From: an uncultured Thermococci archaeon
GTDB taxonomy: Archaea; CAYQAE01; CAYVLA01
Assembly: GCA_964549615.1 (NCBI GenBank)
Contig: CAZJVP010000020.1
Coordinates: 96,001-160,000, forward strand
Length of the DNA: 64,000 nucleotides
Direction: 5' to 3'
A program made the position numbers and the translations under genes. Below are positions 1-22,788 of this stretch, piece by piece. The notes below the pieces were generated by a model that was not told where the DNA came from, did no database searches, and saw only the letters and a program-made list of their open reading frames with translations. How positions within the stretch are numbered: position 1 is the first letter of the stretch; every line of letters begins with the position of its first letter.

Positions 1-697
1 CCTGTCCTTCGCGGAGGGCGCGGACAAGTTGTTCTGGTTCAACCTTAACGCGGCCCCGCCACCGGAGGAGAGCTCCGGGCTGATCGAGCACGATCTCACA
101 CCAAGGCCGGCCTTCTGGGCCCATAAGGCCCTAGCCGATATCGTAGGACCGGCAGAATACCGGTGTAGGGTCAAGCTTGGCACGGGAATCCATGCCCACC
201 TTTTCCACCGGGAGGGAACGTACGTCATGGTCCTCTGGGCCCCCAACGAGACCGCCGAAGTCAGACTCAGAATGGCATCGAGGAGTTCCAGCCCCCGCCT
301 CTGGGACATGTTCGGCAAGGCGATTCAGCCATCCATCAAGGGACGGTTCATTTCGCTTGAAGCGTCACCACACCCGATCTTCATCTCGAATCTGAGCGAG
401 GACGATGTTCAAGCACTGCTGGCCCGACGGGGTTGGATTCCGTTTGTGAGCTTGGCCGCGCTGGTCGCCGCGGTCGGATGCTCGATGGCATACCTTTGGG
501 TGCGGCGACGCCGTGGCCCAGCTCCTACGCAGCGGGCCGATGGGGAGAAGCCGCCAACCAGGTCCGCGACGAAGTTCGGAGATGTGCCGGCCGAATGCCA
601 AAAGGCTTTCAAGGACACGGTCTGCCTCAAGTGTAGGCACTACGTGATCCAGGGAGGAACTGGACGTTGCAGGAAGTTCGGCATAAGGTTGGACTAG
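1..697 (+). CDS. Membrane-anchored glycoside hydrolase-like protein (clan GH-A-like C-terminal part), 5' truncated by the window edge
   Basis: Frame is open from position 2 (LSFAEGADKLFWFNL...GLIEHDLTPRPAFWAHK), resembling the last barrel strand of GH39/GH5-like enzymes; followed by a beta-rich domain, TM helix, RRRR and a Cys-rich tail. Confidence 0.55.
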   Translation, partial: LSFAEGADKLFWFNLNAAPPPEESSGLIEHDLTPRPAFWAHKALADIVGPAEYRCRVKLGTGIHAHLFHREGTYVMVLWAPNETAEVRLRMASRSSSPRLWDMFGKAIQPSIKGRFISLEASPHPIFISNLSEDDVQALLARRGWIPFVSLAALVAAVGCSMAYLWVRRRRGPAPTQRADGEKPPTRSATKFGDVPAECQKAFKDTVCLKCRHYVIQGGTGRCRKFGIRLD

Positions 698-1899
698 CCC
701 TCCTTGCCTGCGCAGCCATCACGATGGGATTCTTGGCCCCGGCTTCAGCCGCCCGCCACGACCCCCAGACCGGGCGTATCAGGATACTCTTCATCGGCCA
801 GCTCGTCGGCGCGGTGAACCTCTTCACCTCTTGGTACACGATCGAGCCGAGGATGACCGTTCAACCGGTTCCCTGCTCGCTCCAGCAAGTGTTGTTGACG
901 GAGGCCAAACGCCTCGTCCGCCTTTACGTTCCACGCACCTACCAGGAGATGGTTGGGAAGTACGACTGCGTCGTGGTCCAGGACCTAGGCCCCGACGTCC
1001 TCTCACCCAATTTCCTACCAGACTTCCGGAGAGCCATCGAAGAGGAGGGCCTGGGCGCAGTCCTCGCGGAGTTCGTGTACTGGGTTGGAAACGGCAACAG
1101 GATAGACCTCTGGATGGCCTCGACCTTCTATGATATCGTGCCTGCAGACATACTGTTCGGGATCGAGATCCCACAAGGCCAGAACTCCTTCTACAAGCTG
1201 GTTGGAAATAACCCCATCCTGCAGCTGCCCCAGATCGAGAAGTACCAGATGAACGGCGGCCACCACGGGCCCATGATAGCCCGCCAGGGCAGCGAGGTCC
1301 TGGCCATCTGGAGGGGCCTCGAGTACCCGGCGGTGACCTTCAGGAATTCGGGACGCGGCGCGCTCATCCAGATAGGACACGGATTTGACAATATCCCATC
1401 ATCCACCTTGTACGACTGGACATACTCCCAGGACTACGCCTACAACCTCGTCTACGGCGCGACCCAGGAGGAGATCCCCAAGGATCTTGAGTTGGTGAGG
1501 AAGGCGAGGTCGCTCTTCACCTCGGCCGCTGAGAAGAAGTCCCTGGTCTTCGCGATCCTGGAGTTCGCCGAGAGGTTTGGGGCCAACACCCACCCGATAA
1601 CGAGGGAGATCGGAAATCTGGCGGAGAGGTACGCTGAGGGCAACTCCCACTACATCGACGGAGACTACGAACAGGCTGCCGCGGTCTACGAGGAGATCAT
1701 CGAAGAGTATGACAGGCTTGAGGCCAAAGCGCTCGCGCTGAAGGACAGGGCGCTTCTCTGGGTCTACACGATTGAGTGGCTCTCCGTGTCAGGCACCTCG
1801 ATGCTCTCGGGGTTTGTCCTTTACTCGCTCATGGTGAGGCGAAAGATGTTCCGGGCAGTTGATTCCACCAGGACGGCCTCCAAACGGAGATCGACATAG
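667..1899 (+). CDS. Exported class I glutamine-amidotransferase-like fold protein with helical stalk and C-terminal TM anchor (paralog family copy 1)
   Basis: Signal-peptide-like N-terminus (..PASA|ARHDPQTG), RILFIG and YDCVVVQD strands, C-terminal TM plus LMVRRK; aligns by eye with 20493..21725. Confidence 0.7.
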   Translation: MQEVRHKVGLALLACAAITMGFLAPASAARHDPQTGRIRILFIGQLVGAVNLFTSWYTIEPRMTVQPVPCSLQQVLLTEAKRLVRLYVPRTYQEMVGKYDCVVVQDLGPDVLSPNFLPDFRRAIEEEGLGAVLAEFVYWVGNGNRIDLWMASTFYDIVPADILFGIEIPQGQNSFYKLVGNNPILQLPQIEKYQMNGGHHGPMIARQGSEVLAIWRGLEYPAVTFRNSGRGALIQIGHGFDNIPSSTLYDWTYSQDYAYNLVYGATQEEIPKDLELVRKARSLFTSAAEKKSLVFAILEFAERFGANTHPITREIGNLAERYAEGNSHYIDGDYEQAAAVYEEIIEEYDRLEAKALALKDRALLWVYTIEWLSVSGTSMLSGFVLYSLMVRRKMFRAVDSTRTASKRRST

Positions 1900-1919
1900 G
1901 CCCCTTGGGCGGGAAGGCT

Positions 1920-1935
1920 GGTCGGACGGCCGACC
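1920..1935. terminator. Short hairpin between convergent genes
   Basis: GGTCGG-ACGG-CCGACC inverted repeat in the 50-bp gap; no U-tract. Confidence 0.25.
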
Positions 1936-1949
1936 GAGCTTGAGACGCC

Positions 1950-2741
1950 CTAGGTTCCGCTTCCGGCGGCTCCCGCTCCCGAACGCCTCCAGCCCTTGAC
2001 GGATGCCAAGGCAAGGCTTGCGCCCGCGGTTATGAATGACGTGTCGCTGTCGACAGCGCAAAACCTGAAACCCATATCGATCGCGTCGTTTACGGTTTCC
2101 CGGGTGCAGTGCATGCCGGGCGCCACGCCATGCCTACGACAAGCCTCGACCACGTTCCTGAGGGTTTTCCGAAATTCCGCGTCCTTCCACGGCGGCGGAG
2201 GGCCGACCCCAAGGTTCATTGAGAGGTCCCAAGGACCTATGAAACAGGCATCGATGCCCTCAACGGCGAAGATCTCGTCCAAGTTGTTCAGGGCCTGACG
2301 AGTCTCGATCATTGCCGCGACGAGGATCTCGCGGTTGGCCGTACCGAGGTACTCGGGATCCCTCAGCATTGCCCTCCTTGGCCCAACGCCGCGGATGCCC
2401 TCCGGAGGGTATCTGCAGGACCTGACGGCGGCGAGCGCCTCTTCGGGGGTATTCACCATCGGCACGATGACTCCGAAGGCGCCGATGTCCAAGACCCGCT
2501 TGATGAGGACGGGATCGTTCCACCTGAGCCTCACCAGGGGCACGCAGTCCTTGGTGAAGCCCATGGCCTGCATCATCACCTGTACGGTCTCAAGGCTCAG
2601 CGGGCTGTGCTCAATGTCGAACGTAAGCCAGTCAAAGCCTAGGTCGGCCAGCCTCTCAGTCACATCCGGATGACCGATGGTAACCCAGGTGCCGATCGAG
2701 ACGTCACCGGCCTTGAGCTTGGCCTTCACGGGGTTTTTCAT
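1950..2741 (-). CDS. HpcH/HpaI family class II aldolase (2-keto-3-deoxy sugar-acid aldolase-like)
   Basis: GFDWLTFDIEHSP, LDIGAFGVIVPMV, YPPEGIRGVG, MIET, FIGPWDLS motifs; start trimmed to MKNPVKAKL. Confidence 0.9.
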   Translation of the reverse strand: MKNPVKAKLKAGDVSIGTWVTIGHPDVTERLADLGFDWLTFDIEHSPLSLETVQVMMQAMGFTKDCVPLVRLRWNDPVLIKRVLDIGAFGVIVPMVNTPEEALAAVRSCRYPPEGIRGVGPRRAMLRDPEYLGTANREILVAAMIETRQALNNLDEIFAVEGIDACFIGPWDLSMNLGVGPPPPWKDAEFRKTLRNVVEACRRHGVAPGMHCTRETVNDAIDMGFRFCAVDSDTSFITAGASLALASVKGWRRSGAGAAGSGT

Positions 2742-3152
2742 ACGACGCATGCCTCGACTATGACCGTTCTTGAAGGTTTCCCGTAAGTAGACATCTCGGG
2801 CATTGTGGGGCTCCGGCATGCGGCTTTCACCCGCCTCCTTGTAAAGCCGTCGTCTGACGATGAGAATCCGCAGGCTTACCTGGGGGGCCAATGGCTTGTC
2901 TGGTGCGACAGGTTTGCTGTGTCGTTCGAAAATCACTCCATCCCCCCGTTTTGGGTGTGTCGGTGGGCAAGCTGACCTACACAACGATCCGGTAGACGGT
3001 GCGATGCGAAGAAAAGGGTGGGATGACCAACAACGAGATCGCGGGAGCCTAAGAGATCAGCACAGGAAGACTCCAACAGCTGGGGGCCGCGGCGCGTTAG
3101 CATCGAACATTTATCTACAGCTCTCCGGGGTACGGGTCAGGGAGGCCACATC

Positions 3153-3815
3153 GTGGACAAGATACGAGTGCTCTGCTGGTCCGAGAGGACTGAACCCCCA
3201 AACGTCTATCCCAATGGCATCAACGGCGCAATCGCCGAGAGCCTCAACAGGCACAAGGATGTCTCGGCTAGGACTGCCTCGATATCAGATCCCGAGCAAG
3301 GATTGACGATGAACGCCCTCAGGGAGGCGGAGGTGCTCATCTGGTGGGGGCATGCGAAGCACGGGGAGGTCAGGGACGATCTGGTCGATCGCGTCGTCAA
3401 ACGCGTGAGGAACGACGGGATGGGCTTCATACCCGTCCACTCGGCCCACTACTCCAAACCTTTCAAGGTGCTCACCGGCATGCCATGCGACCTGGGCGGC
3501 TGGCGCGAGAAGGGCGAGTGGGAACGGATCAAGGTCATGGATCCCAACCACCCGATCGCGAGGGGCATCTCTGACTTCACCATCCCCCGCGATGAGATGT
3601 ACAAGGAGCCTTTCGGAATACCGGAGCCCGAGGCATTGGTCTTCCAGTCCACCTTCGAGGGCGGCGAGTGGTTCCGCTCGGGGGTTGCCTTCACCTTCGG
3701 GAAAGGCCGGGTCTTCTACTTCAGGCCCGGGCACGAAACGTTCCCGGTCATGATGGACAAGAACGTCCAGAAGGTCCTCTACAACGCAGTGCTCTGGGCT
3801 GCGCATAGGACATAG
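3153..3815 (+). CDS. thuA: ThuA-family trehalose utilisation protein
   Basis: VYPNGI, VLIWWGH, GMGFIPVHSAHYSKPF, EMYKEPF, YFRPGHET motifs; GGAGG SD upstream. Confidence 0.9.
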   Translation: MDKIRVLCWSERTEPPNVYPNGINGAIAESLNRHKDVSARTASISDPEQGLTMNALREAEVLIWWGHAKHGEVRDDLVDRVVKRVRNDGMGFIPVHSAHYSKPFKVLTGMPCDLGGWREKGEWERIKVMDPNHPIARGISDFTIPRDEMYKEPFGIPEPEALVFQSTFEGGEWFRSGVAFTFGKGRVFYFRPGHETFPVMMDKNVQKVLYNAVLWAAHRT

Positions 3816-3835
3816 CGGGCAACGGGGGTTGGCAC

Positions 3836-4825
3836 ATGCTCAAGGTTGGCGTCATCGGGATGGGAGGCATCGGAAACACCCACGCCGACATGTACAGGCA
3901 AAATGAACGCGTCAAGTTGGTCGCCGTATGCGACCTCATTAAGGAAAGGGCGGACAAGGCAGCGGCCCGGCTCGGCGTGAAGGCATACTACAGCGCCCCG
4001 GAGATGCTCGATGCGGAGGAGCTTGACATAGTAAGCGTCGCGACCGCAGGAGTTGAGAACGGTTCCGACCACTTCGAGCCCACGATGCAAGCCTTGGACG
4101 CGGGCGTCCACGTGCTCTGCGAGAAGCCTCTATGCAACGACGTCGCCAAGGCCGAGATGATGGTCGAGAAAGCCAAGGAGAAGGGCCTTTGTCTGGGTAC
4201 CAACCTCAACCACAGGTTCGTGCCACCAGCGGCGAGGGCCAAGAAGTACATAGAAGACAAGGAGCTCGGCGAGCTTCTCTTCGTCAACATGGCCCTCTGG
4301 ATAGACAACCCCAACGAGTCCTCCCCCTATTTCCACCTTCGTGCCCTCCATCCGCACTCCATCGACGTGATGAGGTACTTCTGCGGGGACGTGACCAAGG
4401 TGCATGCATTCTTCACCCGGCCCTCTTACCGAAAGATCTGGTCCAACGCACAGATCAACATGCTGTTCGCCAACGGCTGCATCGGACACCTGACCGGTAG
4501 CTACGACATGTCGGGCAATCACCCGATCGAGAGATGCGAGGTGGCGGGAACCGAGGGCAGGTTCATCATCGAGAACGTATTTGAGAGCCTGACGTTCATG
4601 CCCAGGAGAAGGCCGGAAAGGATCGTGTACAAGAACAACATCTTCAGTGGCGTCGGAAGCTTCAGGGACACGTTCAAAAACCGCATCAACCGCTTCGTGG
4701 AACAGATAGCCTCAGGCTGCAAGCCAGAGGAGATAGAGGCCTCAGGGGCGGATGGATTGGCCGCCCAGCGCATAATCGAAGCTGCCATAAAGTCCCACGA
4801 GACCGGCAGGGTCGTCAAGCTCTAG
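3836..4825 (+). CDS. Gfo/Idh/MocA family NAD(P)-dependent oxidoreductase
   Basis: VGVIGMGGIG Rossmann motif, HVLCEKP, HSID. Confidence 0.92.
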   Translation: MLKVGVIGMGGIGNTHADMYRQNERVKLVAVCDLIKERADKAAARLGVKAYYSAPEMLDAEELDIVSVATAGVENGSDHFEPTMQALDAGVHVLCEKPLCNDVAKAEMMVEKAKEKGLCLGTNLNHRFVPPAARAKKYIEDKELGELLFVNMALWIDNPNESSPYFHLRALHPHSIDVMRYFCGDVTKVHAFFTRPSYRKIWSNAQINMLFANGCIGHLTGSYDMSGNHPIERCEVAGTEGRFIIENVFESLTFMPRRRPERIVYKNNIFSGVGSFRDTFKNRINRFVEQIASGCKPEEIEASGADGLAAQRIIEAAIKSHETGRVVKL

Positions 4826-4840
4826 GCGAATAGTGGTCGC

Positions 4841-5698
4841 ATGCAAGACCTTACCGTCGCCGCGGTTCAGATGAACGCCGAGCTTGGACGAACGCAGCAA
4901 AACTTGCGCAAGGTGCGAGCTTGGACCGGCAAGGCCTCCAAATCGGGTGTGGATCTGGTGGTCTTCCCGGAGCTTGCAATAACCGGCCACTGGTGCAGCC
5001 CGGAATCCTGGAAAGCCTCGCAGGCCGTCCCGAACGGTCCCGCAGTCGTTGAGATCGAGGAACTGGCTAAGAAACACGATCTGCACATCTCCATCGGCAT
5101 CGCTGAGAGGGAGCACGGCGTGCAGTACAACAGCCAGATCCTTGTTGGGCCCCAAGGCTACATCGGGAAGCAGAGAAAGCTGCACATGTCAAGCGACGAG
5201 TATTTCTATTTCAGGGCTGGCGCCGAGATGCCCGTCTTCGACATCGGCAAGTGCAAGATCGGCACGGCGATATGCTACGATAACTTTTTCCCCGAGGTTC
5301 CCCGCATCCTAGCCCTGAAGGGTGCGGAGGTCGTGCTCAGCCGCCATGCGGCACGGTTCGGGAAGTGCAGGAAGAAAGGGCAGCGAAAGATCGTGGCGGA
5401 TCAAAAGAAGTTCTACCGAAAGGTCTACGCATCAAGAGCATACGACAACGGGGTTTTCTACGTCATCGTGAACCAGGCGGGGCGGGCGGGCGAGGATACT
5501 AGTCATGCCGGCGGCACCATGGTACTGGACCCCGAGGGGGAGGTCGTGGCGGAATCCAAAACAAAGGTCATCGAGGAGGAGATGGTGATCGCCGAGCTGA
5601 AGTCGTCCCTCTACGAGAAGAGACGCAGCTCAAGGTGCTTCAACCTCGTCACAAGAAGGCCCGAGATATACGGCGAGATCGCGCGTCCAGCAAGCTGA
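4841..5698 (+). CDS. Nitrilase-superfamily carbon-nitrogen hydrolase (amidohydrolase)
   Basis: E-K-C triad in VFPEL, RKLH, ICYD; C-terminal RRPEIY. Confidence 0.92.
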   Translation: MQDLTVAAVQMNAELGRTQQNLRKVRAWTGKASKSGVDLVVFPELAITGHWCSPESWKASQAVPNGPAVVEIEELAKKHDLHISIGIAEREHGVQYNSQILVGPQGYIGKQRKLHMSSDEYFYFRAGAEMPVFDIGKCKIGTAICYDNFFPEVPRILALKGAEVVLSRHAARFGKCRKKGQRKIVADQKKFYRKVYASRAYDNGVFYVIVNQAGRAGEDTSHAGGTMVLDPEGEVVAESKTKVIEEEMVIAELKSSLYEKRRSSRCFNLVTRRPEIYGEIARPAS

Positions 5699-5816
5699 TC
5701 TTTGAGGGGTTGGCGCGCGCGAGTGAAGCTTCGGGACAATTAACTCTCGGTAGGGCCCGTGGGGAGCTCCTCTCGCCGTCCGTGCCCGCCGCGCGCCTCG
5801 CTGATCCTGCAACCGT

Positions 5817-6518
5817 CTACGCGGCGGGGAATAGCATCACGGACAGGATTCCAGTTAGGAATATTCCATCAAAGGTGCCCGCCCCCCCAATGCTCACCAT
5901 GGGTGCTCCAAGACGGGATATCCTCCCAAGGTTCAGCAGATCGGCGCCGATCAGGACGCCTAAGACTCCTGATACGTATGCGATCCCCGCGACCTGATGG
6001 AACGGCAGACCTAGGATTCGTGTCACGACATAGGCCGAGGTTGCGGCGGACAACGGCGGGATGAGAACCGGGATAGAAATGCCGAAGCCGGGCACCGGCC
6101 TAGCCAACGAATGGCAAACGATGGTGACCATGATCGTCGCAGCCGCGAAGCCGGCGAGGGCGTTCGGAGCCATGACGAGAAGGAACAGGCAGATGGCTAC
6201 CGGTACGATGCACCCGCCCAGATTCACAGCTACCTTCGTTTCCTGGATGACCGTGTCAATGAACGGGACTGGATACAGGAAACCTAGAAAGGCCGGCCGC
6301 ATGGTGAGCGTCTGAACCCGCGAGGCCACCCTCGCGACAGGGATGTTGATCCAACTGCCGCCCAGCGAGATGAGAAGGGCCAGCATGGCATACTCTGGCG
6401 GGAGCCCGATTTGCCGAAAGGCGCTTCCGGCCACCCTGGTCACGATGAGGGCGAAAAGGAACATGGTCATGAGGAAGAGGAGCACCATGTATGGCGCTAT
6501 GACCGGCGGCGTTGCCAT
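5817..6518 (-). CDS. DUF1614 family membrane protein
   Basis: SLGGSWINIPV, VAVNLGGCIVP, GVLIGADLLNL, SIGGAGTFDGIFLTG; start trimmed to MATPPV. Confidence 0.88.
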   Translation of the reverse strand: MATPPVIAPYMVLLFLMTMFLFALIVTRVAGSAFRQIGLPPEYAMLALLISLGGSWINIPVARVASRVQTLTMRPAFLGFLYPVPFIDTVIQETKVAVNLGGCIVPVAICLFLLVMAPNALAGFAAATIMVTIVCHSLARPVPGFGISIPVLIPPLSAATSAYVVTRILGLPFHQVAGIAYVSGVLGVLIGADLLNLGRISRLGAPMVSIGGAGTFDGIFLTGILSVMLFPAA

Positions 6519-6695
6519 CGCGAGCGACCTAGGCCCTCTTGCCCTCATCGTATCATCAGGCCGACCAGGTTTCATAATTGTTACTGAAGGCGCGGAGCCG
6601 TAGCTTCGAGGATTTGTGATCGCGATCCGGCTGGGACCTTCCAAGAGCCGATAACCTTTTTCATCCGACCTTGAGCGTCGAAAGATGGTGCTTAC

Positions 6696-7718
6696 ATGAA
6701 GGCTGCGGTTCTTCACGCGATCAATGACATCAGGTTCGAGGAAATCCCGACTCCGAAGATACGTGAGAACGAAGTCCTGCTCAGGGTCAAGGCATGCGGG
6801 CTGTGCGGAACGGACGTGCACTTCCTGCGCGGCGAATGGGCGGTGAGGATGCCCTTGGTCCCTGGCCATGAGTTCTCGGGCGAAATCGCCGAGGTCGGCA
6901 GGGAAGTGACCAACGTTTCGGTGGGAGACAGGGTCTCCATAGATCCCAACGTCGTTTGTGGAGTGTGCAAGAACTGCCGCAGGACCGAAAGGAACCATTT
7001 GTGCTCGAACATCAGGGCCATTGGGGTCGACGTCGATGGCGCATTCGCGGAGTTCGTGAAGGCGCCTCGGGAGGTCGTGTATCGCCTTCCACCGAACGTT
7101 GACTTTGAGACGGGCGCAATGACGGAGCCCGTGGGATGTTGCATCAGGGGATTCGACAACACCAGAGCTGCGCTGGGGGATACGGTCGTGGTGATCGGAG
7201 CAGGCCCGATAGGGCTGATCCTGCAGCAGATGGCTCTCCTGCAAGGTGCGGCGAAGGTCCTGACGATTGAGCCCGTGGAAGGCCGAAGGCGAATGGCAAA
7301 AAAGTTGGGCGCGCACCGAACCATAGACCCCGCCACGGAGGATGTGCCCATGATCGTTGCGGATGAAACCGAGGGGAACGGGCCTGAGGTCGTCTTCGAG
7401 GCCGTTGGCTCGCCCAAAACCATTTCGCTGGCGCTCCAACTTGCTGGAAGGGGCTCAAGGGTGAACCTCTTCGGCGTCGCACCACAGGCCTCAGAGGTCA
7501 CGATCAAGCCGTTCATGCTTTACGACAAGGAGCTCAAGATCTCCGCATCGTACAGGGACCCTTTTACCTTCGATAGAGCGATACAGCTCTTGGCCAACGG
7601 CAGGTTGGATGTCAAGTCGCTCATCACCCACAGGTTCCCCCTATCCAAGGTTGGCGAGGCCATGGAAACCTTCGAGACGAAGAAGGAGGAAGCCATAAAG
7701 ATAATGCTCCGACCCTGA
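6696..7718 (+). CDS. Zn-dependent medium-chain dehydrogenase (sorbitol/threonine dehydrogenase-like)
   Basis: CGLCGTD, GHEFSG, structural Zn CGVCKNC...C, GAGPIG. Confidence 0.93.
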   Translation: MKAAVLHAINDIRFEEIPTPKIRENEVLLRVKACGLCGTDVHFLRGEWAVRMPLVPGHEFSGEIAEVGREVTNVSVGDRVSIDPNVVCGVCKNCRRTERNHLCSNIRAIGVDVDGAFAEFVKAPREVVYRLPPNVDFETGAMTEPVGCCIRGFDNTRAALGDTVVVIGAGPIGLILQQMALLQGAAKVLTIEPVEGRRRMAKKLGAHRTIDPATEDVPMIVADETEGNGPEVVFEAVGSPKTISLALQLAGRGSRVNLFGVAPQASEVTIKPFMLYDKELKISASYRDPFTFDRAIQLLANGRLDVKSLITHRFPLSKVGEAMETFETKKEEAIKIMLRP

Positions 7719-7893
7719 CGTCCCTCCACAGGGCAGGCAGAACGCAGGATGCCTTGGCCACAACGCGCTGAGCGCGAGTGGTGCTGGTCCGCCTTCTCGC
7801 TCACGATCCTTGATATCCAACCTGCTCGAAGCGGCGCCGGTTGCAGCTTGCGAAACAGGTTTATGCATGTACATACGCCGCTTGGTCCCGCAA

Positions 7894-8847: not shown

Positions 8848-8894
8848 GGCAAAAGATTCTTCATTGGAAAGAATGTGGAAGGAGACGTGGTTAG

Positions 8895-9530: not shown

Positions 9531-9687
9531 TCCCGTCCCGAACACGATGCCCGCGTAAACACCTGACCCGGTCAGGGGCCTGCCCGGATCTCGGCTTTCC
9601 CAAGCATAGCTAGCGGCTACCAAAAATCTTTAAGGCCACCCGGCGAGACCTTCGCGTTAATCCGTAGGTCGCGGTGCTGATAGCCAA

Positions 9688-12827: not shown

Positions 12828-12862
12828 CCTAGTCCGTGCTGCCTCGCACGCGGGTGATCGCG

Positions 12863-13648
12863 ATGAAGTTGGCATGCCAGGAAAACTTGGTTCCGGGCAA
12901 GACCCTGAACGAGAAGCTCACCAAGATGGAGTCGTACGGATTCAGGGGGGCCGAATTCTGGGGCCGAGGACTGCCCGAACGGATGGATGAGATAAAGGAA
13001 GCCCTTGCCTCCACAAAGCTGAAGGCCTCAACGATATGTGCGGGCTATGGGGGGTGCCTGCTGGACACCGACAAGAACGAGAGGAAGAAGGCAATGGAGG
13101 ACATCAAGGCGCTCCTCAAGGCTGGAGCTGACCTCGGCGTGGTTGGGCTCATCACGGTTCCGATCTTCGGCGGGCCGCGCATCCCGGACCTCACCCCTTA
13201 CGCGCCTGCCGTGGAGATAGAGAAGAAGCTGCTCGTGCTGGAACTCAAGGAGCTCGGCAAACATGCACAGGACGTCGGGTGCCTTGTCCTGTTGGAGCCG
13301 CTGAACAGGTACGAGACGCATCTTCTCCGTACCCTGAACGATGCAATGGAGATCCAGAAGGCGGTGGGCATCGACAGCGTGAAGATAATGGCGGACTTCT
13401 TCCACATGAGCATTGAGGAGAGGGACATCGCAGCAAGCCTTCGGGAGGCTGGGGACGCTGTGAGCCACATACATCTGGCCGACAGCACGAGGCAGCTGCC
13501 CGGTTACGGGCATACCGATTTCAGGTCCGGCTTCGCCGCGCTCAAGAAGATTGGATACGACAAGTACATGGCACTCGAATGCGGCGTGCCCGGCGACCCC
13601 GAGGTTGAGCTTCCCAAGGCCGTCAAGTACCTCAAGTCGTGCATGTGA
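12863..13648 (+). CDS. Sugar phosphate isomerase/epimerase (xylose isomerase-like TIM barrel)
   Basis: LEPLNRYE, DFFHMSIEE, HIHLADS.RQLPGYG, ALEC metal-binding motifs; GGTGA SD. Confidence 0.92.
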   Translation: MKLACQENLVPGKTLNEKLTKMESYGFRGAEFWGRGLPERMDEIKEALASTKLKASTICAGYGGCLLDTDKNERKKAMEDIKALLKAGADLGVVGLITVPIFGGPRIPDLTPYAPAVEIEKKLLVLELKELGKHAQDVGCLVLLEPLNRYETHLLRTLNDAMEIQKAVGIDSVKIMADFFHMSIEERDIAASLREAGDAVSHIHLADSTRQLPGYGHTDFRSGFAALKKIGYDKYMALECGVPGDPEVELPKAVKYLKSCM

Positions 13649-13657
13649 GGCGATTAC

Positions 13658-14620
13658 GTGCCGGTCAGAGTCGGATTCGTCGGCGTAGGCGGAATAGCGC
13701 AGGGACACCTCAACAACGTCAAGAGGAATCCCCTGGCCGAGCTCGTCGCCGTCTGCGACATAGTTGAGGAGAAGGCGAAAGCGGCGTCCGAGAAGTTCGG
13801 CGCCAAGCCCTACACCAACTTTGCGGACATGATCAAGAGGGAAGATCTGCAGGCGCTCTACGTCTGCGTCCCGCCGCACGCACACGGCAAGGTCGAGTTG
13901 CTCGCGGCTGAGAAGGGGATATCCCTTTTCATAGAGAAGCCGCTGGCCTCCGACCCGCTCACCCCGGAGAGAATCGCAAAGGCCATCTCGAGAAAAGGGG
14001 TGATCGCAAGCGTGGGTTACAACTGGCGTTACAGCGACATGACGGACAGAGCCCTCGAAATCCTTAAGGACAAGACCATCGGACTGGTCCTAGGATACTG
14101 GATGGGCGGGCTGCCCGGGGTAGCTTGGTGGCGGGTGAAGGCCCAGTCGGGAGGCCAGGCCGTTGAGCAGACGACTCACATCTTTGACATGGCGAGATGT
14201 CTCGCCGGCGAGGTCAAGACCGTCTATGCATCGGCTGGGCTCCAGTGCATGAAGGACGTGGAGAACCTCGACGTGGAGGACGCCTCGGCCGTGAACCTCA
14301 CCTTCAAGAACGGGGCGCCTGGAGCCATAATCTCGACCTGCATGCTCAGCCAAGGCTATCGGGTGATGATCTCGGTCTTCTCGAGGGACCTAGCCTTGGA
14401 GCACACGCAGGGGACCCTCAGGATCATGACCCCTGCGGAGGAGAGGTTGCTCAAGTCAAGGGTCGACCCATATGCCAAGGAGGATGAGATCTTCATCGAG
14501 GCAGTGTCGACGGGAAATGCCTCAAAGATAAGGTCGCCCTACGACGACGCGCTCAAGACCCACCGGGTAACGATGGCGGCAAACCGCTCCATGCGAACCG
14601 GTAGGCCAGTGGCACTGTAG
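13658..14620 (+). CDS. Gfo/Idh/MocA family oxidoreductase
   Basis: GFVGVGGIA, FIEKP, SGGQAVEQTTHIFD. Confidence 0.92.
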   Translation: MPVRVGFVGVGGIAQGHLNNVKRNPLAELVAVCDIVEEKAKAASEKFGAKPYTNFADMIKREDLQALYVCVPPHAHGKVELLAAEKGISLFIEKPLASDPLTPERIAKAISRKGVIASVGYNWRYSDMTDRALEILKDKTIGLVLGYWMGGLPGVAWWRVKAQSGGQAVEQTTHIFDMARCLAGEVKTVYASAGLQCMKDVENLDVEDASAVNLTFKNGAPGAIISTCMLSQGYRVMISVFSRDLALEHTQGTLRIMTPAEERLLKSRVDPYAKEDEIFIEAVSTGNASKIRSPYDDALKTHRVTMAANRSMRTGRPVAL

Positions 14621-15670: not shown

Positions 15671-15785
15671 CGAACCAATACAAGTCAAGCGGCTAGAAAT
15701 ATTGAACGCCTACACCCAGGAGATTCCCTGCGAGGGTCTCGGCGCCAGTCCAAGAGCCAGCCTTCAGTCCGCCGACCCATGGACC

Positions 15786-18485
15786 CTACTCCAATTCGGC
15801 GTGGAGGTCTTCAAAAAGCCCCGTGAAGGCGTTGATGTACTCCTTTCGCTGCCCGTCCTCTGAGGCGTAGGTGACCTCATAGTAGGGCATATGCACGAGG
15901 CGGACCCCCTCCAGTCGATATCCGGGGTAAATGGTTCGCACCAATGCTTCCACGCCGTCACGGTCGTATCTCATTTCGAGGACGCGTTCGGCCCTCAGCA
16001 CGGCGGTGCTGGGAAGCTGCCCCTTGACCGAGTCCGGCCTGGGAGGGAACCTGATCCCCTTGGACAGGGAGCCTCTGAGGCGCCCCTTCCTGTCCTCGGA
16101 AAGTTCTATGATCCCCTTGTCCGAAAGCTCCGTCATGGCCTCGCGTATCTTGGCCCTGCCCATGCCAAGCTCCGCCTCGCATTCCTCGGGCATCCTCCCA
16201 TGGATCACGCAGCGCAAGACGCCAAGATGCCTTTCGCCAAGCGAGGTCAGGGAACGAAGGTTGCTTGACCTCCTGAAGTCGCGGAAGTCCACGACGAGCT
16301 CCCTAAGGTATGCATCGAAGAGCACCGTGCACCTGACCACAAGCCTGCCCGTCAACCACCCCTGCTTCCGAAGCGACAGGGTCGATTCGAACATCGGGCA
16401 GTGAACCAACTGAACCGACTCTATGAACTCCTTTGGCCTGCCCGTCCAGCTCTTTCTTATTCTCTCGAGTGCCATGCCCTTGGCGGAGTCCAGACGGAGA
16501 ACCACCGGGTAGGACTCGACCTCCTGACCGTGCAACGCCCGCGCTTCTGCTGTGTGCGAGCGCACCTGGGATGTCTGGACAGCTGACGGTTCCGGCTTGG
16601 ATTCAGCCCCAATCGTAGGTTCCATGAGGCTCGAGAGGCCGACCTCTTCCTCCTGGGCCACCTCTTCCCTCTCAAGAGCCGGGAACTCCTCCGTCACCTC
16701 TTGCGACTCCGGACCGCTGACTATTAGGTGGTCCGCGTAGTATCTCGCCTTCCCGCGGCCGGCATGCTCCGAACCCAGGATGATCCTAGGAACCTTCTCC
16801 CCCTGCTCGGGCTGTTCCCCGGCGTCCGCACCAGACCCTTCACCCGCCTCCAGATCGCTCGGGAGGCCGGGTGGACCAAGCGGAAGTTGGAGCTCAGCCT
16901 CAGCGGGTTCTTGGGAAGCCGGCTCATCCGGGCTTGCGGAGACTATCTCCAGCGGCTCGGCCGGGGTTTTCTCCACGGTCGCGGAAGGCGGGACGCGACC
17001 CGCCTCCTCGCCCCATATGCTGGGTATGCTCGAAACTCTCCCTTCCTGGGTGGGGCCCGGTCCCGCCTTGCTCGATGTGTCGAGAGGCGGAAGTTGCTTC
17101 TGCGGCACTGACTCCTTTCCCGAATGGTGGGTGAGCCTGGGCCTTATCTGTATAAGGAAGGCGCGCTGCTGCGTCTTCTGGTCAGCAAGGATGGCAAAGC
17201 CGGACGGTATCCCTCGGACGAAGTCGGAATCGGCCAACTGGGGAGGAAGCTTGGCCGGCACCCTCCGCAGCAGCGCCGCTATATCATCCTCCAACCCGAG
17301 GCTGTGGCCGATCAGGATGTCCACCTGCGACAGTATGTCATCATCCGTCGCAGCCGGCCTCTGCGTCGCGAATACCAAGGCACAGCCAGGCTTGCGCCCG
17401 ACCTTGGCGTACTCGATGAGGGGCTTCGATGCCGCAGTCAACCCCCTCCTTGGGATCAGAAGGTGGGCCTCGTCTATCATGAGCCAGGTCACGGGGATTC
17501 TCGGACCCTCGCCAGCGAGCCCAAGCTCCTCCCTGCGGGCATTCTCCATCCTCGCTTGCAGGATCTTCTTCGCTATGATCCCTACTATCAACGCCCTCAT
17601 CTGGTTCTCAAGCTTGGGGTGGCTTACGTCGATCACCGTCACCCTGTCCCAGACGGAGATTTCCTCTATGGGGGTTCCCTCCCGGGAAAAGATGCCCCAG
17701 TTCTCGGCGGCCTTGAGTCTCGCGATCACGCTGCGCCGGGTCGAGCGCGCGTATCCCTTCTCCTCCGAACAGAGCTCGATATCCCTATCCATGACGTCGA
17801 TTATGTCCTCGATCGTGTAGTCACTGCCCTTCCCCGGGATGAATTCGACCTCGTTTAGGCCCTTCCTGACCTTGTACCCTTGCCTAACTTTCTCCAGCGC
17901 CTCACCTATGAGCAAGCCTTGAATCTTGAACCTGTCCAGGCCGAAGACCAGGCACCATTCCTCCGAGGTGAGCTCGGACGGCTTAATGGAGAAGGACCCA
18001 TCCAGAACGTCGTTACCTTGTCCGAAGATCCCGAGAGGCCCGAGGATGCGGACGTTATCCAAGGCTTGGGGCTTGAGCCCCCATCTTTCCAGCTCGCTGA
18101 TCTCCTTCCGGTTCTGGTTTTCCTTCTTCAGCGACCAGTAGATGCCTATCGGATCGACTATCACGGTCCCGATGCCGATCCTGGTTCTGCATAGTTCCTC
18201 GGCAATGACGCCCAGGGTGTAGCTCTTCCCGCCGCCCCTCTTCCCGCAGATGAAGATGATGTGGGGAAACTTGGCATCGACATAGACGCGGTACCCGTGG
18301 AAGGACTGCCCACTTGCCTGTTTCTCGCATACCGCCCCGATGTCAAGGAGGCCCTCGAATCCCTCCCGCTTCTGCTCTTTCTTGGTCCTCCCGACAATGA
18401 TCGCCTCCTTTCCCGGGTCAAAGACCGGGTCGAGGCGCTCGTCCACTATGGGCCGGAAGCTCGTGCTAGCGTAAAGTCTTCCCAA
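15786..18485 (-). CDS. HerA/FtsK-superfamily (DUF87-type) ATPase with acidic linker and C-terminal winged-helix region
   Basis: Walker A GKRGGGKS, Walker B WLMIDEAH, GRKPG, ATQRP; Pro/Glu-rich linker. Confidence 0.88.
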   Translation of the reverse strand: MGRLYASTSFRPIVDERLDPVFDPGKEAIIVGRTKKEQKREGFEGLLDIGAVCEKQASGQSFHGYRVYVDAKFPHIIFICGKRGGGKSYTLGVIAEELCRTRIGIGTVIVDPIGIYWSLKKENQNRKEISELERWGLKPQALDNVRILGPLGIFGQGNDVLDGSFSIKPSELTSEEWCLVFGLDRFKIQGLLIGEALEKVRQGYKVRKGLNEVEFIPGKGSDYTIEDIIDVMDRDIELCSEEKGYARSTRRSVIARLKAAENWGIFSREGTPIEEISVWDRVTVIDVSHPKLENQMRALIVGIIAKKILQARMENARREELGLAGEGPRIPVTWLMIDEAHLLIPRRGLTAASKPLIEYAKVGRKPGCALVFATQRPAATDDDILSQVDILIGHSLGLEDDIAALLRRVPAKLPPQLADSDFVRGIPSGFAILADQKTQQRAFLIQIRPRLTHHSGKESVPQKQLPPLDTSSKAGPGPTQEGRVSSIPSIWGEEAGRVPPSATVEKTPAEPLEIVSASPDEPASQEPAEAELQLPLGPPGLPSDLEAGEGSGADAGEQPEQGEKVPRIILGSEHAGRGKARYYADHLIVSGPESQEVTEEFPALEREEVAQEEEVGLSSLMEPTIGAESKPEPSAVQTSQVRSHTAEARALHGQEVESYPVVLRLDSAKGMALERIRKSWTGRPKEFIESVQLVHCPMFESTLSLRKQGWLTGRLVVRCTVLFDAYLRELVVDFRDFRRSSNLRSLTSLGERHLGVLRCVIHGRMPEECEAELGMGRAKIREAMTELSDKGIIELSEDRKGRLRGSLSKGIRFPPRPDSVKGQLPSTAVLRAERVLEMRYDRDGVEALVRTIYPGYRLEGVRLVHMPYYEVTYASEDGQRKEYINAFTGLFEDLHAELE

Positions 18486-18632
18486 CCGCGGCGGCTCCCG
18501 CGTCTCAAAAGATTGGCAATCCTCTTATATTTTTTCCAAGATCCAGCGCGCAATGGCAGCCACGATTCGCGCGACAGGGACCGCCGGTTGGCTACCGTCA
18601 CGACCTAAGAATGGGGCCCTCGACGAGCGAGG

Positions 18633-19625
18633 TCAGTGGTCGGCCGATTCCCCGCCTTTCCGATGGGCCAAGAAGCTCCACCGAATCATCGCCGCGATGC
18701 AGATCAGGCCCAAGGCCCAGAAGATGCCGAGGAGGACCATCCTGCGCATTCTCTGAGATCGAGCCCTGCCTTGGGAGCGGGCGAGAAGCTCATCCTGCGT
18801 CTTCTCCCGTTGGGCGACCACTTCATGGTAGTTCGCTGAGTACGCATGGAAGCGTACATTGCCCTCGCAGACCCAGCGGTAAGCATCGGCCAACAGAACC
18901 TGGAACTCGGGCTGCTCCAGGAGCTTGCCGTAGTAACTCTCCGCGGTGGGCTGTTCCCTCAAGAAAAGGCCCGTGAAGGTGGCCGACCGTCCCCCGCGCT
19001 CACCCTCATAGGCGATCACAAGCGGTGCCCCGGTCTTCTTCTCCCGGAACAGCACCGTCCTTTTCCCTGGCAGAGCTTGCACATCGACGAGCTTCTTGTC
19101 CTGGTCACTGGCATAGGCGAAGAACTGCCCTACGACGTCGAAACTGTCCGGAAGCCCGTCTGCGAAGCCTTCCAGGCGATCGGCCCTCACGTACTCATTC
19201 ACGTATGTGCCAGCCTTCCTCACGCCGCTCCCCGTGGTGTTGCCGAAGGCCGGGAAGACCAACCTGGCCAGGTCGCCCACCTGCGTCTGCCACGAACAAC
19301 CGTAGAAGCCGATGGCCGAGCCGCCGCTGCGGAAGTACTCGGTGACTGGTTCGACCAACGCCGTCAGATCGCCGGGGGCAACGGAGGTCAGGATCAAACA
19401 CTTGACGTTAGGGAGCGCTAGGAGGGACCCCACGAGGCTGGGATCGCTGGCCACGATGATCTCCTCCCCCTGAACGCACGAGGCGTTGAGAGCTGCCGCG
19501 ACCCCTTGCGCAAGGACCCTCATGCTCCCGTCGTAAACCACGATGATTGGCCGGAACTCTGCACAGAGGGATGGGGATATGAGTAAAAACGACGCCGCCC
19601 AGAGACAGAACGCTGCGCCCCTCAC
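18633..19625 (-). CDS. Exported ThuA/GATase-like fold protein with C-terminal TM anchor
   Basis: Signal-peptide-like N-terminus, YFRSGGSAIGF motif, ERGGRSATFTG, TM near the C-terminus. Confidence 0.6.
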   Translation of the reverse strand: MRGAAFCLWAASFLLISPSLCAEFRPIIVVYDGSMRVLAQGVAAALNASCVQGEEIIVASDPSLVGSLLALPNVKCLILTSVAPGDLTALVEPVTEYFRSGGSAIGFYGCSWQTQVGDLARLVFPAFGNTTGSGVRKAGTYVNEYVRADRLEGFADGLPDSFDVVGQFFAYASDQDKKLVDVQALPGKRTVLFREKKTGAPLVIAYEGERGGRSATFTGLFLREQPTAESYYGKLLEQPEFQVLLADAYRWVCEGNVRFHAYSANYHEVVAQREKTQDELLARSQGRARSQRMRRMVLLGIFWALGLICIAAMIRWSFLAHRKGGESADH

Positions 19626-20470
19626 TGCTTCACCCCCCTCTGCATCGGGTCCATCAACACGGCCTCCAGCGCGCCGTCGCAGTAGCCGGTGACCAGCTCA
19701 ATCAGGTATCTCTCGGGCGCCCAGGTCACGATCTGACGGAGGCCGTCTTCCGGGATATCGATCGTGAAGGATACCGAGAACCTTTCGTCTCTCTTAACGG
19801 CCTCGAAAACGAGGACGCCGTCCGCGGGCGCCTCCGATATGCGCGGCAATTGTTTCAGCATGGTGCCGGGCCTGACGTACTCCTTCTTCTCAGTGCCCCG
19901 AGAGATCGTGAGGTACTGCAGGCTCCGCTCCGGCTCCATGAAGAACCCGGGGTAGCCCTCAAAGTAGCGCACCTGGTCGCCCCTCACGAGCATCGCAAAG
20001 ACGAGCGGCAGCTTTGACATCATGGACCTATTGTTGAATGCCTCAAGGAACCTGGAGAAATCCGCGATCGTGGCTCTGTACCTAGTCCCGTTCAGTTCGG
20101 CGTCCCTTTCGATGATTTCGGCATATCCTCCCAACGCCGCCACGTAGCTTTCGAGCTTGGCAACGTTAGGTAGGTCACGTAGGTCCACCGATCCGGAGGC
20201 GTTCGCGCCAAGATCCTTCTCGTACAGGGACGAGAAGCGCAGCTCCACCCTCTCGAAGTCTCTCGTTGCCATGAAGGAAAACGACAGCTCGCTGTCAAGA
20301 CCCATGGCTTGCGCGCGCTTGACCAGCGCCAGGGGATACTCGTTCGCGAGCACCAACAACGCGTCCTCTTCCTTCGGCTTCACGATCGTGGCCACAAGCA
20401 GCGTGGAAAGTATCACGGATGAGGCGATTATGGCCCCAAGACGTGGATCAATCCTCGGCAAGTTCGCCAT
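19622..20470 (-). CDS. Hypothetical protein with N-terminal membrane anchor
   Basis: Single N-terminal TM; 4-bp overlap with the downstream gene; GGAGG SD. Confidence 0.7.
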   Translation of the reverse strand: MANLPRIDPRLGAIIASSVILSTLLVATIVKPKEEDALLVLANEYPLALVKRAQAMGLDSELSFSFMATRDFERVELRFSSLYEKDLGANASGSVDLRDLPNVAKLESYVAALGGYAEIIERDAELNGTRYRATIADFSRFLEAFNNRSMMSKLPLVFAMLVRGDQVRYFEGYPGFFMEPERSLQYLTISRGTEKKEYVRPGTMLKQLPRISEAPADGVLVFEAVKRDERFSVSFTIDIPEDGLRQIVTWAPERYLIELVTGYCDGALEAVLMDPMQRGVKQ

Positions 20471-20492
20471 CCTCCTAGACCCGAACCCTAGC

Positions 20493-21725
20493 TCACACCC
20501 TCTCAAGCCGCGTGAGTCGAACTTCGGCATACATCTTCCTACGGACCATCAGCGTATAAAGCAGGAAGCCGCACAGCAGGAACGTTCCCGTCACGGAAGC
20601 CCACTCGATCAGATAGACGTTGAAGAGCGCCTTCCTCGCCAGCGCCCTCGCCTCGTCCACCTTCTCGTTGACGAGCCTCATGGCGTTTTCGTAGGCCTCC
20701 AGCGCGGATGCGTATTCGCCCGAGAAATAAAGCCTGTCCGCCTCAGCCCTCGCTCTATCGCAGTCGATCGCCGCAGCCGTAACGGCAGCGAAGTTGCCCC
20801 CAAAGCTGTCAACGATCTCAACCATCGAGTCAAGCGTCGAACGGACGTCCCAGTACTGCCTCGCCCTGCGCCTTATCATGTAGACGACGTCAAGATCGTC
20901 AGGAAGCCTTCTTCCCGCGGTGAACATCACCATGTTTATGGCGAAGTCCGGGTAGTACTCCCAGGTCATGAAGATCATCCCCCCGGCAGGAGTCCAATCC
21001 GTGGTCATCGAGAAGCCCCTTCCCTTGCCGACATCCCACCAAGCCAGGTGCGGTATCCTTCCGTAGCTGAAGGTCTCACCCTCGGCGACTAGGTGCGAGG
21101 TTTGCTTCAGCACCGTGAGGTGCCCCTCGCTGAAGACGCCCTTCGTCCCCAGCGTATCCCACGGCAGGCTCTTTCCGAACTCGCCCTCGCGGTCAACGAT
21201 GACCATCCGGATTGATTGGTCGCAGTACCGGTGATCCAGCATTTCGACCGGCAGTACCTCGGCCACGGTCGTGGTGCTCCAGCTTGGCATCACCGTTCCC
21301 CTCCCCTCGTAGCTCTCGGCGCCGCCTATCATGATGATGCCAAGCCCGCTATCTGTGACGGCCTCGCTCATCCAGCTTATCTCAGCTGGCCTGAAGACGT
21401 CCTTGTTCGCATCGCTGAGGATTATGACGTCGAAGCCGTTCTTCAGCCGATCGGGAGTTCGTGGCATGTAATACCTCATCTGCTTGTTGATGAGATCATA
21501 GGTGGCGTGGAAGGTGCAGGCCGTGACGGGGGTGGCGACGAAGCTCGGCTCCAGTTTCATATAGGGAAAAGGGCTTCTGGCGGTGATCGCATCCCCCAGA
21601 TACAAGACTCGAATCTTGCCGGTCTGGGGATCGGACCTCATCTCCCTGGCCTGGCTTCCGCTTGTCGCCAGCATCAGGACACATGCCAAAGTAAGTCCGG
21701 TTGCCAGACTCCTTTGCACGGGCAT
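20493..21725 (-). CDS. Exported GATase1-like (DUF1355-type) protein with helical stalk and C-terminal TM anchor (paralog family copy 2)
   Basis: Signal peptide, RSDPQTGKIRVLYLGD, FDVIILSDA, GIIMIGGAESY, VAEVLPVEM, C-terminal EW..VTGT..LMVRRK. Confidence 0.78.
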   Translation of the reverse strand: MPVQRSLATGLTLACVLMLATSGSQAREMRSDPQTGKIRVLYLGDAITARSPFPYMKLEPSFVATPVTACTFHATYDLINKQMRYYMPRTPDRLKNGFDVIILSDANKDVFRPAEISWMSEAVTDSGLGIIMIGGAESYEGRGTVMPSWSTTTVAEVLPVEMLDHRYCDQSIRMVIVDREGEFGKSLPWDTLGTKGVFSEGHLTVLKQTSHLVAEGETFSYGRIPHLAWWDVGKGRGFSMTTDWTPAGGMIFMTWEYYPDFAINMVMFTAGRRLPDDLDVVYMIRRRARQYWDVRSTLDSMVEIVDSFGGNFAAVTAAAIDCDRARAEADRLYFSGEYASALEAYENAMRLVNEKVDEARALARKALFNVYLIEWASVTGTFLLCGFLLYTLMVRRKMYAEVRLTRLERV

Positions 21726-21741
21726 GGTTTGGGACGGATCC

Positions 21742-21755
21742 TGGATATATATCCA
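21742..21755. promoter_or_regulatory. 14-bp perfect palindrome containing the TATA box of the 21725 gene
   Basis: TGGATATATATCCA is self-complementary and lies 17-30 bp upstream of the ATG. Confidence 0.5.
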
Positions 21756-22297
21756 ACCCCTGAAGCCCGGAACCCAAGCCCGTCCGAAGTTGCAAGGAAA
21801 GGGCGCGATCAACCCGGTAGGTTGCGATTTGCCGAAGCCGGCTGCACATCGAGGTTGTCCGCCATGAGGTTCTGCCCGGATGCTTACACAGTCCACATTC
21901 CGTACGTACCGGGGAATAGCAGACTGTCCGGATTACAAACTCCCTTTGGGGAGGTTAGGTAGGGCGTCTCTGCAAACGGTTGCGCCTGGACCTGAGGATC
22001 CGAGCTGGCGGTTGCCCCGGCAAGAGGTGCACCACGCGGCACATTGGCTTCGACCTTCTTCCGACGTATCTCATAAGGGCTTAGCGGCCATTTGCCTTAG
22101 AGTTCCTCGATGGACACCTCCAACTTGGCAATTCTCGCAGCGTGGGTGAACGGTGACCCACGCCTAAGGGGCTGGCGACCGATGATTTCCTACGTGACCG
22201 CCACAGGCGTGCCGATTCTTGTGCCGCAGAAGTTGCGGACGAGTTCTGCGTCTACTGGAGGGTGTTGCCCTCCGTCCGTGGCCTGAACGCCACAGGA

Positions 22298-22788
22298 CCG
22301 ATATGATGGCGAACGTCGTGCTGTATTCGCTCGACCTGCCGTTGGTCTTAGACGTTCGCGCAAGACGCGAGGCCGGCTTCCCATGTCAGACCTCAGAGCC
22401 CAGGAATCGCTGGTGGCCTCCATGATTGAGTACGCCGAGAAGTTCGGAGCCAACACCGTTCCGCTATCCGAGCGGGTCTCGAAGTCGGGCGCCGAGATGG
22501 GAACCGCCAAGCAGCACTATCTTGATCAGGAGTACGACAGCGCGATCACATCATGGACTCGATAACCTCGGCGATGGCCGAATAACCAGGGAAGCCGTGG
22601 ATTTGAAGAACGCGGCGATGCGGTGGGTTTTTCTGTCCGAGTGGCTGGTCGTCACGGGGACTTTCTGCATTTCCGGCATCTCTGTGTGGAGCCTTATGGT
22701 TCGTCGGAAGGCCTACAGGGCCGCCGCCACCACCCGCGTTTCCCCTGCGTACAGAGGCAGGGGGATATGGTCTGAGGAGAAGCGGTAG
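22298..22788 (+). pseudogene. Frameshifted 3' remnant of the exported GATase-like paralog family (copy 3)
   Basis: Homology is split over three ORFs: DMMANVVLYSLDLP / SLVASMIEYAEKFGAN...HYLDQEY / EAVDLKNAAMRWVFLSEWLVVTGT...LMVRRKAYR; no N-terminal domain recognisable. Confidence 0.8.

Follow-up and report, generated by a model that had tools for sequence, protein, structure and literature searches.

The window analysed here, a stretch of 64,000 nucleotides (64 kb) of the archaeal contig CAZJVP010000020.1, encodes two intact members and one remnant of a protein family that is old, hugely expanded and nearly confined to Hadarchaeota-type archaea. Hadarchaeota are uncultured subsurface archaea. 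The family consists of type-I membrane proteins with a signal peptide, a PF07090 GATase1-like head of about 240 residues, three helices, a transmembrane (TM) helix and a short cytoplasmic end. Its longest conserved block is a C-terminal tail that runs from the juxtamembrane segment through the membrane into the cytoplasm. We tentatively favour the reading that the helix of this tail packs against a partner common to all paralogues, and that the tail is a retained, family-specific docking or assembly module carrying diversified heads. The members of the family in the window are the following.

667..1899, plus strand: copy 1, intact, 410 residues (open reading frame and translation)
667..753, plus strand: signal peptide of copy 1, about residues 1-29 (translation and model)
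754..1476, plus strand: PF07090-like ectodomain of copy 1, residues 30-270 (AlphaFold2 model and fold matches)
1477..1737, plus strand: three-helix stalk of copy 1, residues 271-357 (AlphaFold2 model)
1738..1872, plus strand: conserved juxtamembrane-TM-cytoplasmic tail of copy 1, residues 358-402 (region identities)
20493..21725, minus strand: copy 2, intact, 410 residues from the methionine at 21725 (within the open reading frame 20493..21896)
about 20508..20642, minus strand: tail of copy 2 (part of copy 2)
22287..22788, plus strand: remnant, a frameshifted C-terminal pseudogene fragment of a third paralogue (two frames)

Copy 1 and copy 2 align from end to end (27% identity, E 3e-43). When a hidden Markov model (HMM) of the tail was run against all six-frame open reading frames (ORFs) of the window, it matched exactly copy 1, copy 2 and the remnant. 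The three are members of one family. An earlier note on this DNA had quoted stalk motifs (EFAERFGAN, EIVDSFGGN and EYAEKFGAN) and tail ends (LMVRRKMFR, LMVRRKMYA and LMVRRKAYR) for them, and all were found in the translations as quoted. So was the mature start DPQTG[RK]IR[IV]L, which is common to copies 1 and 2 and follows a signal-peptide-like segment; read from the methionine at 21725, copy 2 has a signal-peptide-like N-terminus. The third copy proposed in the note is real, but its placement at 22298..22788 had to be corrected. Its stalk motif lies in the frame 22287..22565 and its TM tail in the frame 22426..22788, separated by a frameshift, and the remnant spans 22287..22788 across the two frames. 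No ectodomain was found upstream of it. The remnant does not derive from copy 1 or copy 2; it is nearest to other paralogues.

To describe the tail we used an alignment of 91 family sequences (A2), which was also the input for the AlphaFold2 model of copy 1. The consensus of the tail comprises a juxtamembrane KDRALLWVY-x-IEW, a TM segment with a Thr/Ser-Gly-Thr stretch and a near-invariant Gly, and a cytoplasmic LMVRRRLYREV-xx-TR. Mean pairwise identities among the 91 sequences were as follows.

Ectodomain: 0.24
Stalk: 0.27
Whole tail: 0.54
Juxtamembrane part of the tail: 0.63
TM part of the tail: 0.45
Cytoplasmic part of the tail: 0.55

Whether the tail is more conserved than the rest of the protein had been set beforehand as the decisive comparison, and with 0.54 against 0.24 for the ectodomain the answer is clear. 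Stalk and tail are thus subject to far more constraint than the head. The tail is also the longest conserved block in a profile of information content, where lesser peaks mark an Arg-x-Tyr-x-Pro-Arg motif (residues 80-89) and the Phe-Gly-Ala-Asn motif of the stalk (residues 300-309). Insertions, deletions and sequence variation cluster in residues 140-250, in agreement with the earlier description of a variable middle of the ectodomain. Within the tail, E370 is kept in 99% of the sequences, A362, M389 and T401 in 96% and G382 in 86%, and the conserved stretch reaches 12 residues into the cytoplasm.

The conservation of the tail is due to selection on the protein. At residues conserved between pairs of sequences, the frequency with which the same codon was used is 0.286 for the tail and 0.295 for the ectodomain. 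As same-codon use is alike in both regions, selection must act at the protein level; these values of synonymous codon identity led us to reject gene conversion, and likewise a DNA or RNA element, as the reason why the tails are so similar. A simple packing face on one side of the helix was rejected as well, since the conservation shows no significant helical moment (p 0.14-0.25). As a control we used the c4 proteins, a family with the same layout encoded close to members of the tail-bearing family (described below). In c4, tail identity (0.19) is lower than ectodomain identity (0.27), and this family has few copies (8 ORFs). Because c4 shares membranes and architecture with the tail-bearing family and yet has no conserved TM segment, constraints of lipid environment or membrane insertion alone do not fix the TM sequence.

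An expanded archaeal family

To find further members, a pattern made from the tail peptide was scanned over 185,579 species-representative genomes, a search in which copies without the pattern and other lineages can be missed. It returned 58 matches, 54 of which encode relatives, in 49 loci. According to the taxon labels given in the database records, all 49 loci come from three 'Candidatus Hadarchaeota archaeon' metagenome-assembled genomes (MAGs) with the contig prefixes CAZUNO01, CAYVLA01 and CAYWSC01; that no more than three MAGs appear is in part a consequence of searching with one pattern. An HMM search of six-frame ORFs from the 49 loci and the window gave 103 tail matches, corresponding to 100 distinct tail-bearing ORFs. 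The counts for the MAGs refer to the fetched parts of each and are lower bounds.

CAZUNO01: at least 44 tail-bearing ORFs, at least 35 of full length
CAYVLA01: at least 41 tail-bearing ORFs, at least 36 of full length
CAYWSC01: at least 12 tail-bearing ORFs, at least 8 of full length
Window: 3 tail-bearing ORFs, 2 of full length
Total, loci and window: 100 tail-bearing ORFs, 81 of full length

The remaining 19 of the 100 are truncated at a contig end, frameshifted or reduced to a C-terminal remnant, and for 57 of the 100 another copy lies within 3 kb. These numbers, above all those of the two richest MAGs, bear out the expansion that had been proposed from the window.

Protein databases contain many more members. 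An exhaustive search of 1.84 billion representative proteins with a tail-only profile (alignment A3) yielded 420 matches at E <= 1e-3, of which 377 reached E <= 1e-10. Among the 150 matches listed, the tail ends 0-35 residues from the C-terminus and no protein is longer than 468 residues. A word-based search gave 283 matches, the best 120 of which measure 115-455 residues and show PF07090 as their sole Pfam accession; a few of the matches are hypothetical proteins at NCBI from a 'Theionarchaea archaeon' MAG. The Atlas clusters of the family are labelled Archaea. A literature search, which covered few papers from subscription journals, found none on the family.

Within a genome, the paralogues are far apart: the median best identity is 40%, and only 5 of 71 members have a relative in the same genome that is at least 70% identical. 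For 38 of the 71, the closest relative is found in another genome rather than in their own, and the tree shows the same pattern. Because of this low within-genome identity and the closer ties between genomes, the paralogues are, as judged from sequence comparison, old and retained across species.

Besides intact genes, C-terminal remnants of stalk and/or tail occur in the window (22287..22788) and in four loci (L021:9033-9617, L029:5180-5971, L034:9573-10247 and L049:2561-2773). The database proteins P0267, P0208, P0161 and P0228 belong to the same remnant set, and some of them carry a piece of stalk or tail fused behind cytoplasmic-type enzymes. Thus, remnants and fusions suggest that genes of the family often decay or rearrange and leave their 3' ends behind; the remnants were found by the tail search, which 5' remnants would escape. 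In a further protein, P0010 (534 residues), the C-terminal two-thirds of a family member follow an N-terminal part of the Peptidase_M48 type (PF01435). The contig that encodes it measures 1,853 nt, so the fusion may be genuine or chimeric.

Architecture of the protein and fold of the head

The AlphaFold2 model of copy 1 is of high confidence (mean predicted local distance difference test score, pLDDT, 93.3; predicted template modelling score, pTM, 0.85). In it, a signal helix precedes an alpha/beta domain (residues 38-265), after which come three helices (residues 274-303, 309-330 and 334-389). The last of these is unbroken from the stalk through the membrane; the cytoplasmic end of the protein is of low confidence. 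An N-terminal hydrophobic segment is present, and an internal TM segment absent, in all 81 full-length ORFs, as expected for exported proteins and as the earlier note had held. The C-terminal TM segment passes a strict hydropathy cut-off in 71 of the 81. Nine of the other ten come near it, and the low value of the tenth reflects a long C-terminal extension.

The best fold matches of copy 1 in the PDB are STM3548 (2gk3), STM1381 (3soz) and a GATase1-like protein from Planctomyces (3rht), with template modelling scores (TM-scores) by target of 0.64-0.70, and profile comparisons of the family with the same three entries gave E-values of 5e-19 to 4e-17. Below them rank the middle domains of glycoside hydrolase (GH) family GH42, ThuA-like proteins and true GATases. 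With the Pfam model PF07090 (cut-off 27), copy 2 reaches 32.1 bits; copy 1 alone has no match to it. Among the 91 members, PF07090 matches 30 at E <= 0.01 (best 3.6e-17), and the ThuA model (PF06283) matches one (E 0.001), so that the resemblance to ThuA is one of fold only. The solved members of PF07090 (STM3548, STM1381 and 3rht) have the same ectodomain fold and belong to the same sequence family, and in all of them Gly-Gly replaces the catalytic Cys. However, they are soluble proteins of about 250 residues, called cytoplasmic by their depositors, whereas the proteins studied here are exported and have a stalk and a conserved TM tail.

Other proteins resemble the head in structure. The N-terminal domain of IFT52 (GIFT) reaches a TM-score by target of 0.63 and ThuA-like proteins reach 0.58, and the structural neighbours of the family in the Atlas include BatA/VWA/DUF7408 and DUF4350/GIFT clusters. 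By sequence, however, none of the 91 members matches the GIFT domain (IFT52/GldG-type), DUF4350 or BatA-VWA-DUF7408 at E <= 0.01, and the anchors and domain orders of ThuA-like, GIFT, DUF4350 and BatA-VWA-DUF7408 proteins are unlike those of the family.

Catalytic class-I glutamine amidotransferases rely on a Cys-His-Glu triad whose Cys occupies the nucleophile elbow. In the 91 sequences, the elbow columns hold Gly-Gly or other residues, and a Cys is not conserved in any of them; the Gly-Gly noted before at the elbow of copy 2 aligns with the Gly-Gly of STM3548 and STM1381. Neither Cys nor His exceeds 30% in any ectodomain column of the alignment. With no conserved Cys or His and no Cys at the elbow, the heads are therefore not amidotransferases, which agrees with the non-catalytic ectodomain that had been proposed. 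The heads might still be enzymes of an unrecognised chemistry, for instance on glycans, with the tail as a mere anchor fixed by the lipid environment or the insertion route. The ectodomain residues R85, Y87, P89, R90 and W149 are kept in at least 95% of the sequences, and many carbohydrate-active enzymes are encoded in the genomic surroundings. But the heads have no conserved nucleophile, and the c4 proteins, with the same membranes and architecture, do not conserve their TM segment. We therefore consider such enzymes highly doubtful.

A sorting signal or a retained module

The earlier note had likened the tail to sorting signals and suggested a sortase-like enzyme or a transporter as the partner. 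In the account of Haft and Varghese (2011, PMC3237569), PGF-CTERM, PEP-CTERM and GlyGly-CTERM tags are common to proteins that have nothing else in common, and a processing enzyme is found along with them. If the tail were such a signal, an archaeosortase-, rhomboid- or myxosortase-like or new enzyme would remove the TM segment and attach the protein to a lipid or the surface layer. The likeness to the known sorting domains (PGF-CTERM with archaeosortase A, PEP-CTERM with exosortase, GlyGly-CTERM with rhombosortase, and PVV_CTERM) is real: a motif, a TM segment and an Arg cluster follow each other at or near the C-terminus, dozens of proteins per genome bear them, and the outer half of the TM segment holds Gly and Thr residues that weaken helices.

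The cargo of the tail argues against it, since sorting tags serve unrelated proteins and the tail is tied to one family. Stalk and ectodomain accompany the tail in all 81 full-length ORFs of the loci and the window. In the 288 tail-bearing database proteins that we also analysed, the tail is preceded by at least 140 residues in 200 cases and by 60-140 in 52, and 36 are too short to judge. Among the 200, 193 contain stalk and head, 5 the stalk only and 2 neither; a stalk was present in 47 of the 52. The seven exceptions are cytoplasmic-type enzyme sequences without a signal peptide, fused to a partial stalk and a tail, and to judge by their sequences resemble remnants that gene callers have read through, or fusions. 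Conversely, a search with the head of copy 2 only found the tail in 45 of 46 matches, the exception being a partial protein on a contig of 1,344 nt, and orthologues of copy 2 (up to 86% identity) all carry PF07090. Tails on unrelated ectodomains were looked for and, remnant-like fusions aside, none was found.

Profile searches gave a similar picture. Whole proteins had no match to the sorting-domain models of NCBIfam and Pfam. When the tails alone were compared, 20 of 79 matched the NCBIfam model PVV_CTERM with 14-21 bits, all below the cut-off of 27. These matches cover only positions 9/10-34 of the 38 profile positions, that is the TM and basic part, and leave the first 8-9 positions unaligned. 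CGP_CTERM and MYXO-CTERM matched one of the 79 tails each (E 0.04-0.2). Moreover, the motif of the tail is situated within the continuous predicted helix 334-389 and not after a linker, and conservation extends through the TM segment into the cytoplasm, where known tags need none.

The processing enzymes were not found near the genes either. The window and the 49 loci encode 39 polytopic proteins (25 and 12 scanned in separate library scans, 2 assigned to an MMPL cluster by similarity). No archaeosortase or rhomboid was found among them, and no archaeosortase, exosortase, rhombosortase or myxosortase was found in the window or the loci, although such an enzyme may be encoded elsewhere. One M50 protease and several ABC-2 permeases are present, none of which recurs. 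Taken together, the single cargo family, the continuous helix, the conserved cytoplasmic stretch and the lack of a model match above cut-off speak against the analogy with PGF-CTERM and PEP-CTERM, and we regard a true sorting or processing signal as unlikely.

The most probable of the alternatives is that stalk and tail drive homo- or hetero-oligomerisation of the paralogues, as dimers, trimers or a TM bundle with no further partner, and that conservation keeps the copies compatible. The TM segment is only moderately hydrophobic and rich in small and polar residues (Thr/Ser-Gly-Thr and the Gly at position 382), which is typical of packed helices. The stalk forms a confident helical unit in the model, and the related GATase1-like domains of GH42 enzymes are oligomerisation domains. 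However, conservation is not confined to one face of the helix, and a bundle would leave the conserved cytoplasmic motif of 12 residues unexplained. Oligomerisation of this kind is a minor but real possibility.

We prefer packing of the tail helix against a common partner because no side of the helix is spared by the conservation, which is seen outside and inside the membrane boundary alike, and because stalk and tail form one helix. A membrane partner shared by the paralogues is a reasonable hypothesis.

Genomic setting and possible role

Two further genes follow copy 2 on the same strand.

19622..20530, minus strand: c3, an orphan of about 280-300 residues, anchored by an N-terminal TM segment, immediately downstream of copy 2
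18633..19625, minus strand: c4, 330 residues, a distant relative of the family, after copy 2 and c3

An alternative start of c3 is its second methionine, at 20470. The protein has no Pfam match, no lead in the Atlas (all scores <0.8) and no relation to the family. Its gene lies within 300 bp of a tail-bearing ORF in 10 of 11 cases, compared with 137 of 580 other ORFs. The c4 protein is related to the family by profile comparison (hhalign probability 76%, E 2.2e-5) and shares its layout: the signal peptide is followed by a GATase1/ThuA-like ectodomain, and this by a long helix that continues into a C-terminal TM segment. The fold of its model (pLDDT 80.3) matches STM3548 and ThuA-like proteins, and a search of PDB sequences with its profile returned nothing useful. 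All eight c4 genes lie within 1500 bp of a tail-bearing ORF (228 of 580 other ORFs), that is, the genes of the two families are linked.

A family member, c3 and c4 recur as a three-gene module, found in the window (18633..20530, minus strand) and in the loci L001, L003, L004, L006, L007, L009, L010, L012, L022, L024 and L031. Gene order within the module varies, and it adjoins members of different clades. A single clade of c3/c4-linked members was rejected, the tree requiring 10 changes compared with 10.5 in shuffles. Directly downstream of c4 in the window, on the same strand, is a gene for a HerA-like (DUF87) P-loop ATPase of 899 residues (15786..18485, minus strand); the other loci showed no relative of this ATPase. 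Another protein of about 500 residues, c6, recurs in family-rich loci (window 28093..29706, minus strand; L036:9878-11479, L038:9929-11377, L040:1490-3049 and L047:14262-15734) and is twice encoded directly between family genes. It has no sequence match in Pfam or the PDB.

Other genes flank the copies in the window. A protein with a LigD-type primase-polymerase domain is encoded at 22790..23626 (minus strand) and abuts the remnant. At the other end, a gene that begins before the start of the window contributes only its C-terminal part (2..697, plus strand), and its stop codon falls 30 nt within copy 1. In the encoded part, a TM helix precedes an Arg cluster, and the cytoplasmic end is rich in Cys and resembles a zinc ribbon; no Pfam model matches it. 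Genes for MCM, deoxyhypusine synthase, diphthamide synthase and NFACT mark the window as archaeal.

In general, family genes are scattered and often form small arrays. We scanned 79 of the 185 collected neighbour proteins against Pfam. The neighbours of family genes include sulfatases (a cluster of 16 ORFs), FG-GAP/lambda-carrageenase-like propellers, GH4, GH95, GH99, GH127 and GxGYxYP proteins, as well as oligogalacturonate-lyase-like propellers, an acetyl-xylan-esterase-like protein, PF12831 oxidoreductases, GFO_IDH_MocA with AP_endonuc_2 and ThuA, and ordinary housekeeping genes. The Hadarchaeota loci (L001-L049, for example L016:968-3795, L022:5125-6801, L028:3422-5596 and L022:11499-13349; window 3153-5698 and 12836-14620) hold a toolkit for complex or sulfated glycans of a kind typical of PVC-group bacteria. 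A full-text literature search found no paper joining Hadarchaeota and sulfatase.

If the tail docks on a common partner, as we favour, it would stay on the protein as a permanent, family-specific docking or assembly module. Its helix would pack against a conserved membrane partner, perhaps a transporter or transducing complex that all paralogues share, and possibly against further copies of itself as well. The diversified heads are putative interchangeable ligand-binding modules, and given the gene content of the genomes their ligands would most likely be glycan-derived. A subset of members may work in the three-gene module with c3 and c4. It is the diversification of the heads and the gene content of the genomes that suggest a ligand-binding, glycan-related role.

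Several points weigh against this reading. No polytopic membrane protein recurs beside family members in the window and the 49 loci, where no partner was found. A tight homo-oligomeric bundle could also give conservation all round the helix. That the tail is retained would follow from just two features, a predicted continuous helix and the conserved cytoplasmic stretch. Sulfatases are no closer to family genes than background, with 6 of 15 within 1500 bp compared with 228 of 580 ORFs; the link to glycans therefore rests on genome-wide content and not on operons. Finally, the closest solved relatives (STM3548, STM1381 and 3rht) are described as proteins of unknown function in the source consulted (PMC13432705).

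It is also conceivable, if unlikely, that the tail is the address label of a new, lineage-specific Hadarchaeota membrane system. One machine would then serve more than 40 interchangeable ligand-binding heads per cell, a many-to-one receptor array with which the cells forage on complex and possibly sulfated glycans and to which c3 and c4 would belong as accessory subunits. The machine we propose for this case would be an insertase- or sortase-like enzyme, a transporter or a signal transducer that recognises the juxtamembrane-TM-cytoplasmic motif.

The conserved anchor offers a bait for the partner and a sequence tag for cataloguing a family of which two-thirds of the members escape the Pfam model. 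The tail is moreover a test case for whether conserved TM tails with a single cargo mark assembly modules rather than sorting signals. Hadarchaeota are counted among the main fermenters of macromolecules in sediments, according to one account (PMC9979476). With at least 35-36 intact copies in each of two MAGs and paralogues retained across species, the family is likely to be central to how Hadarchaeota cells meet their surroundings.

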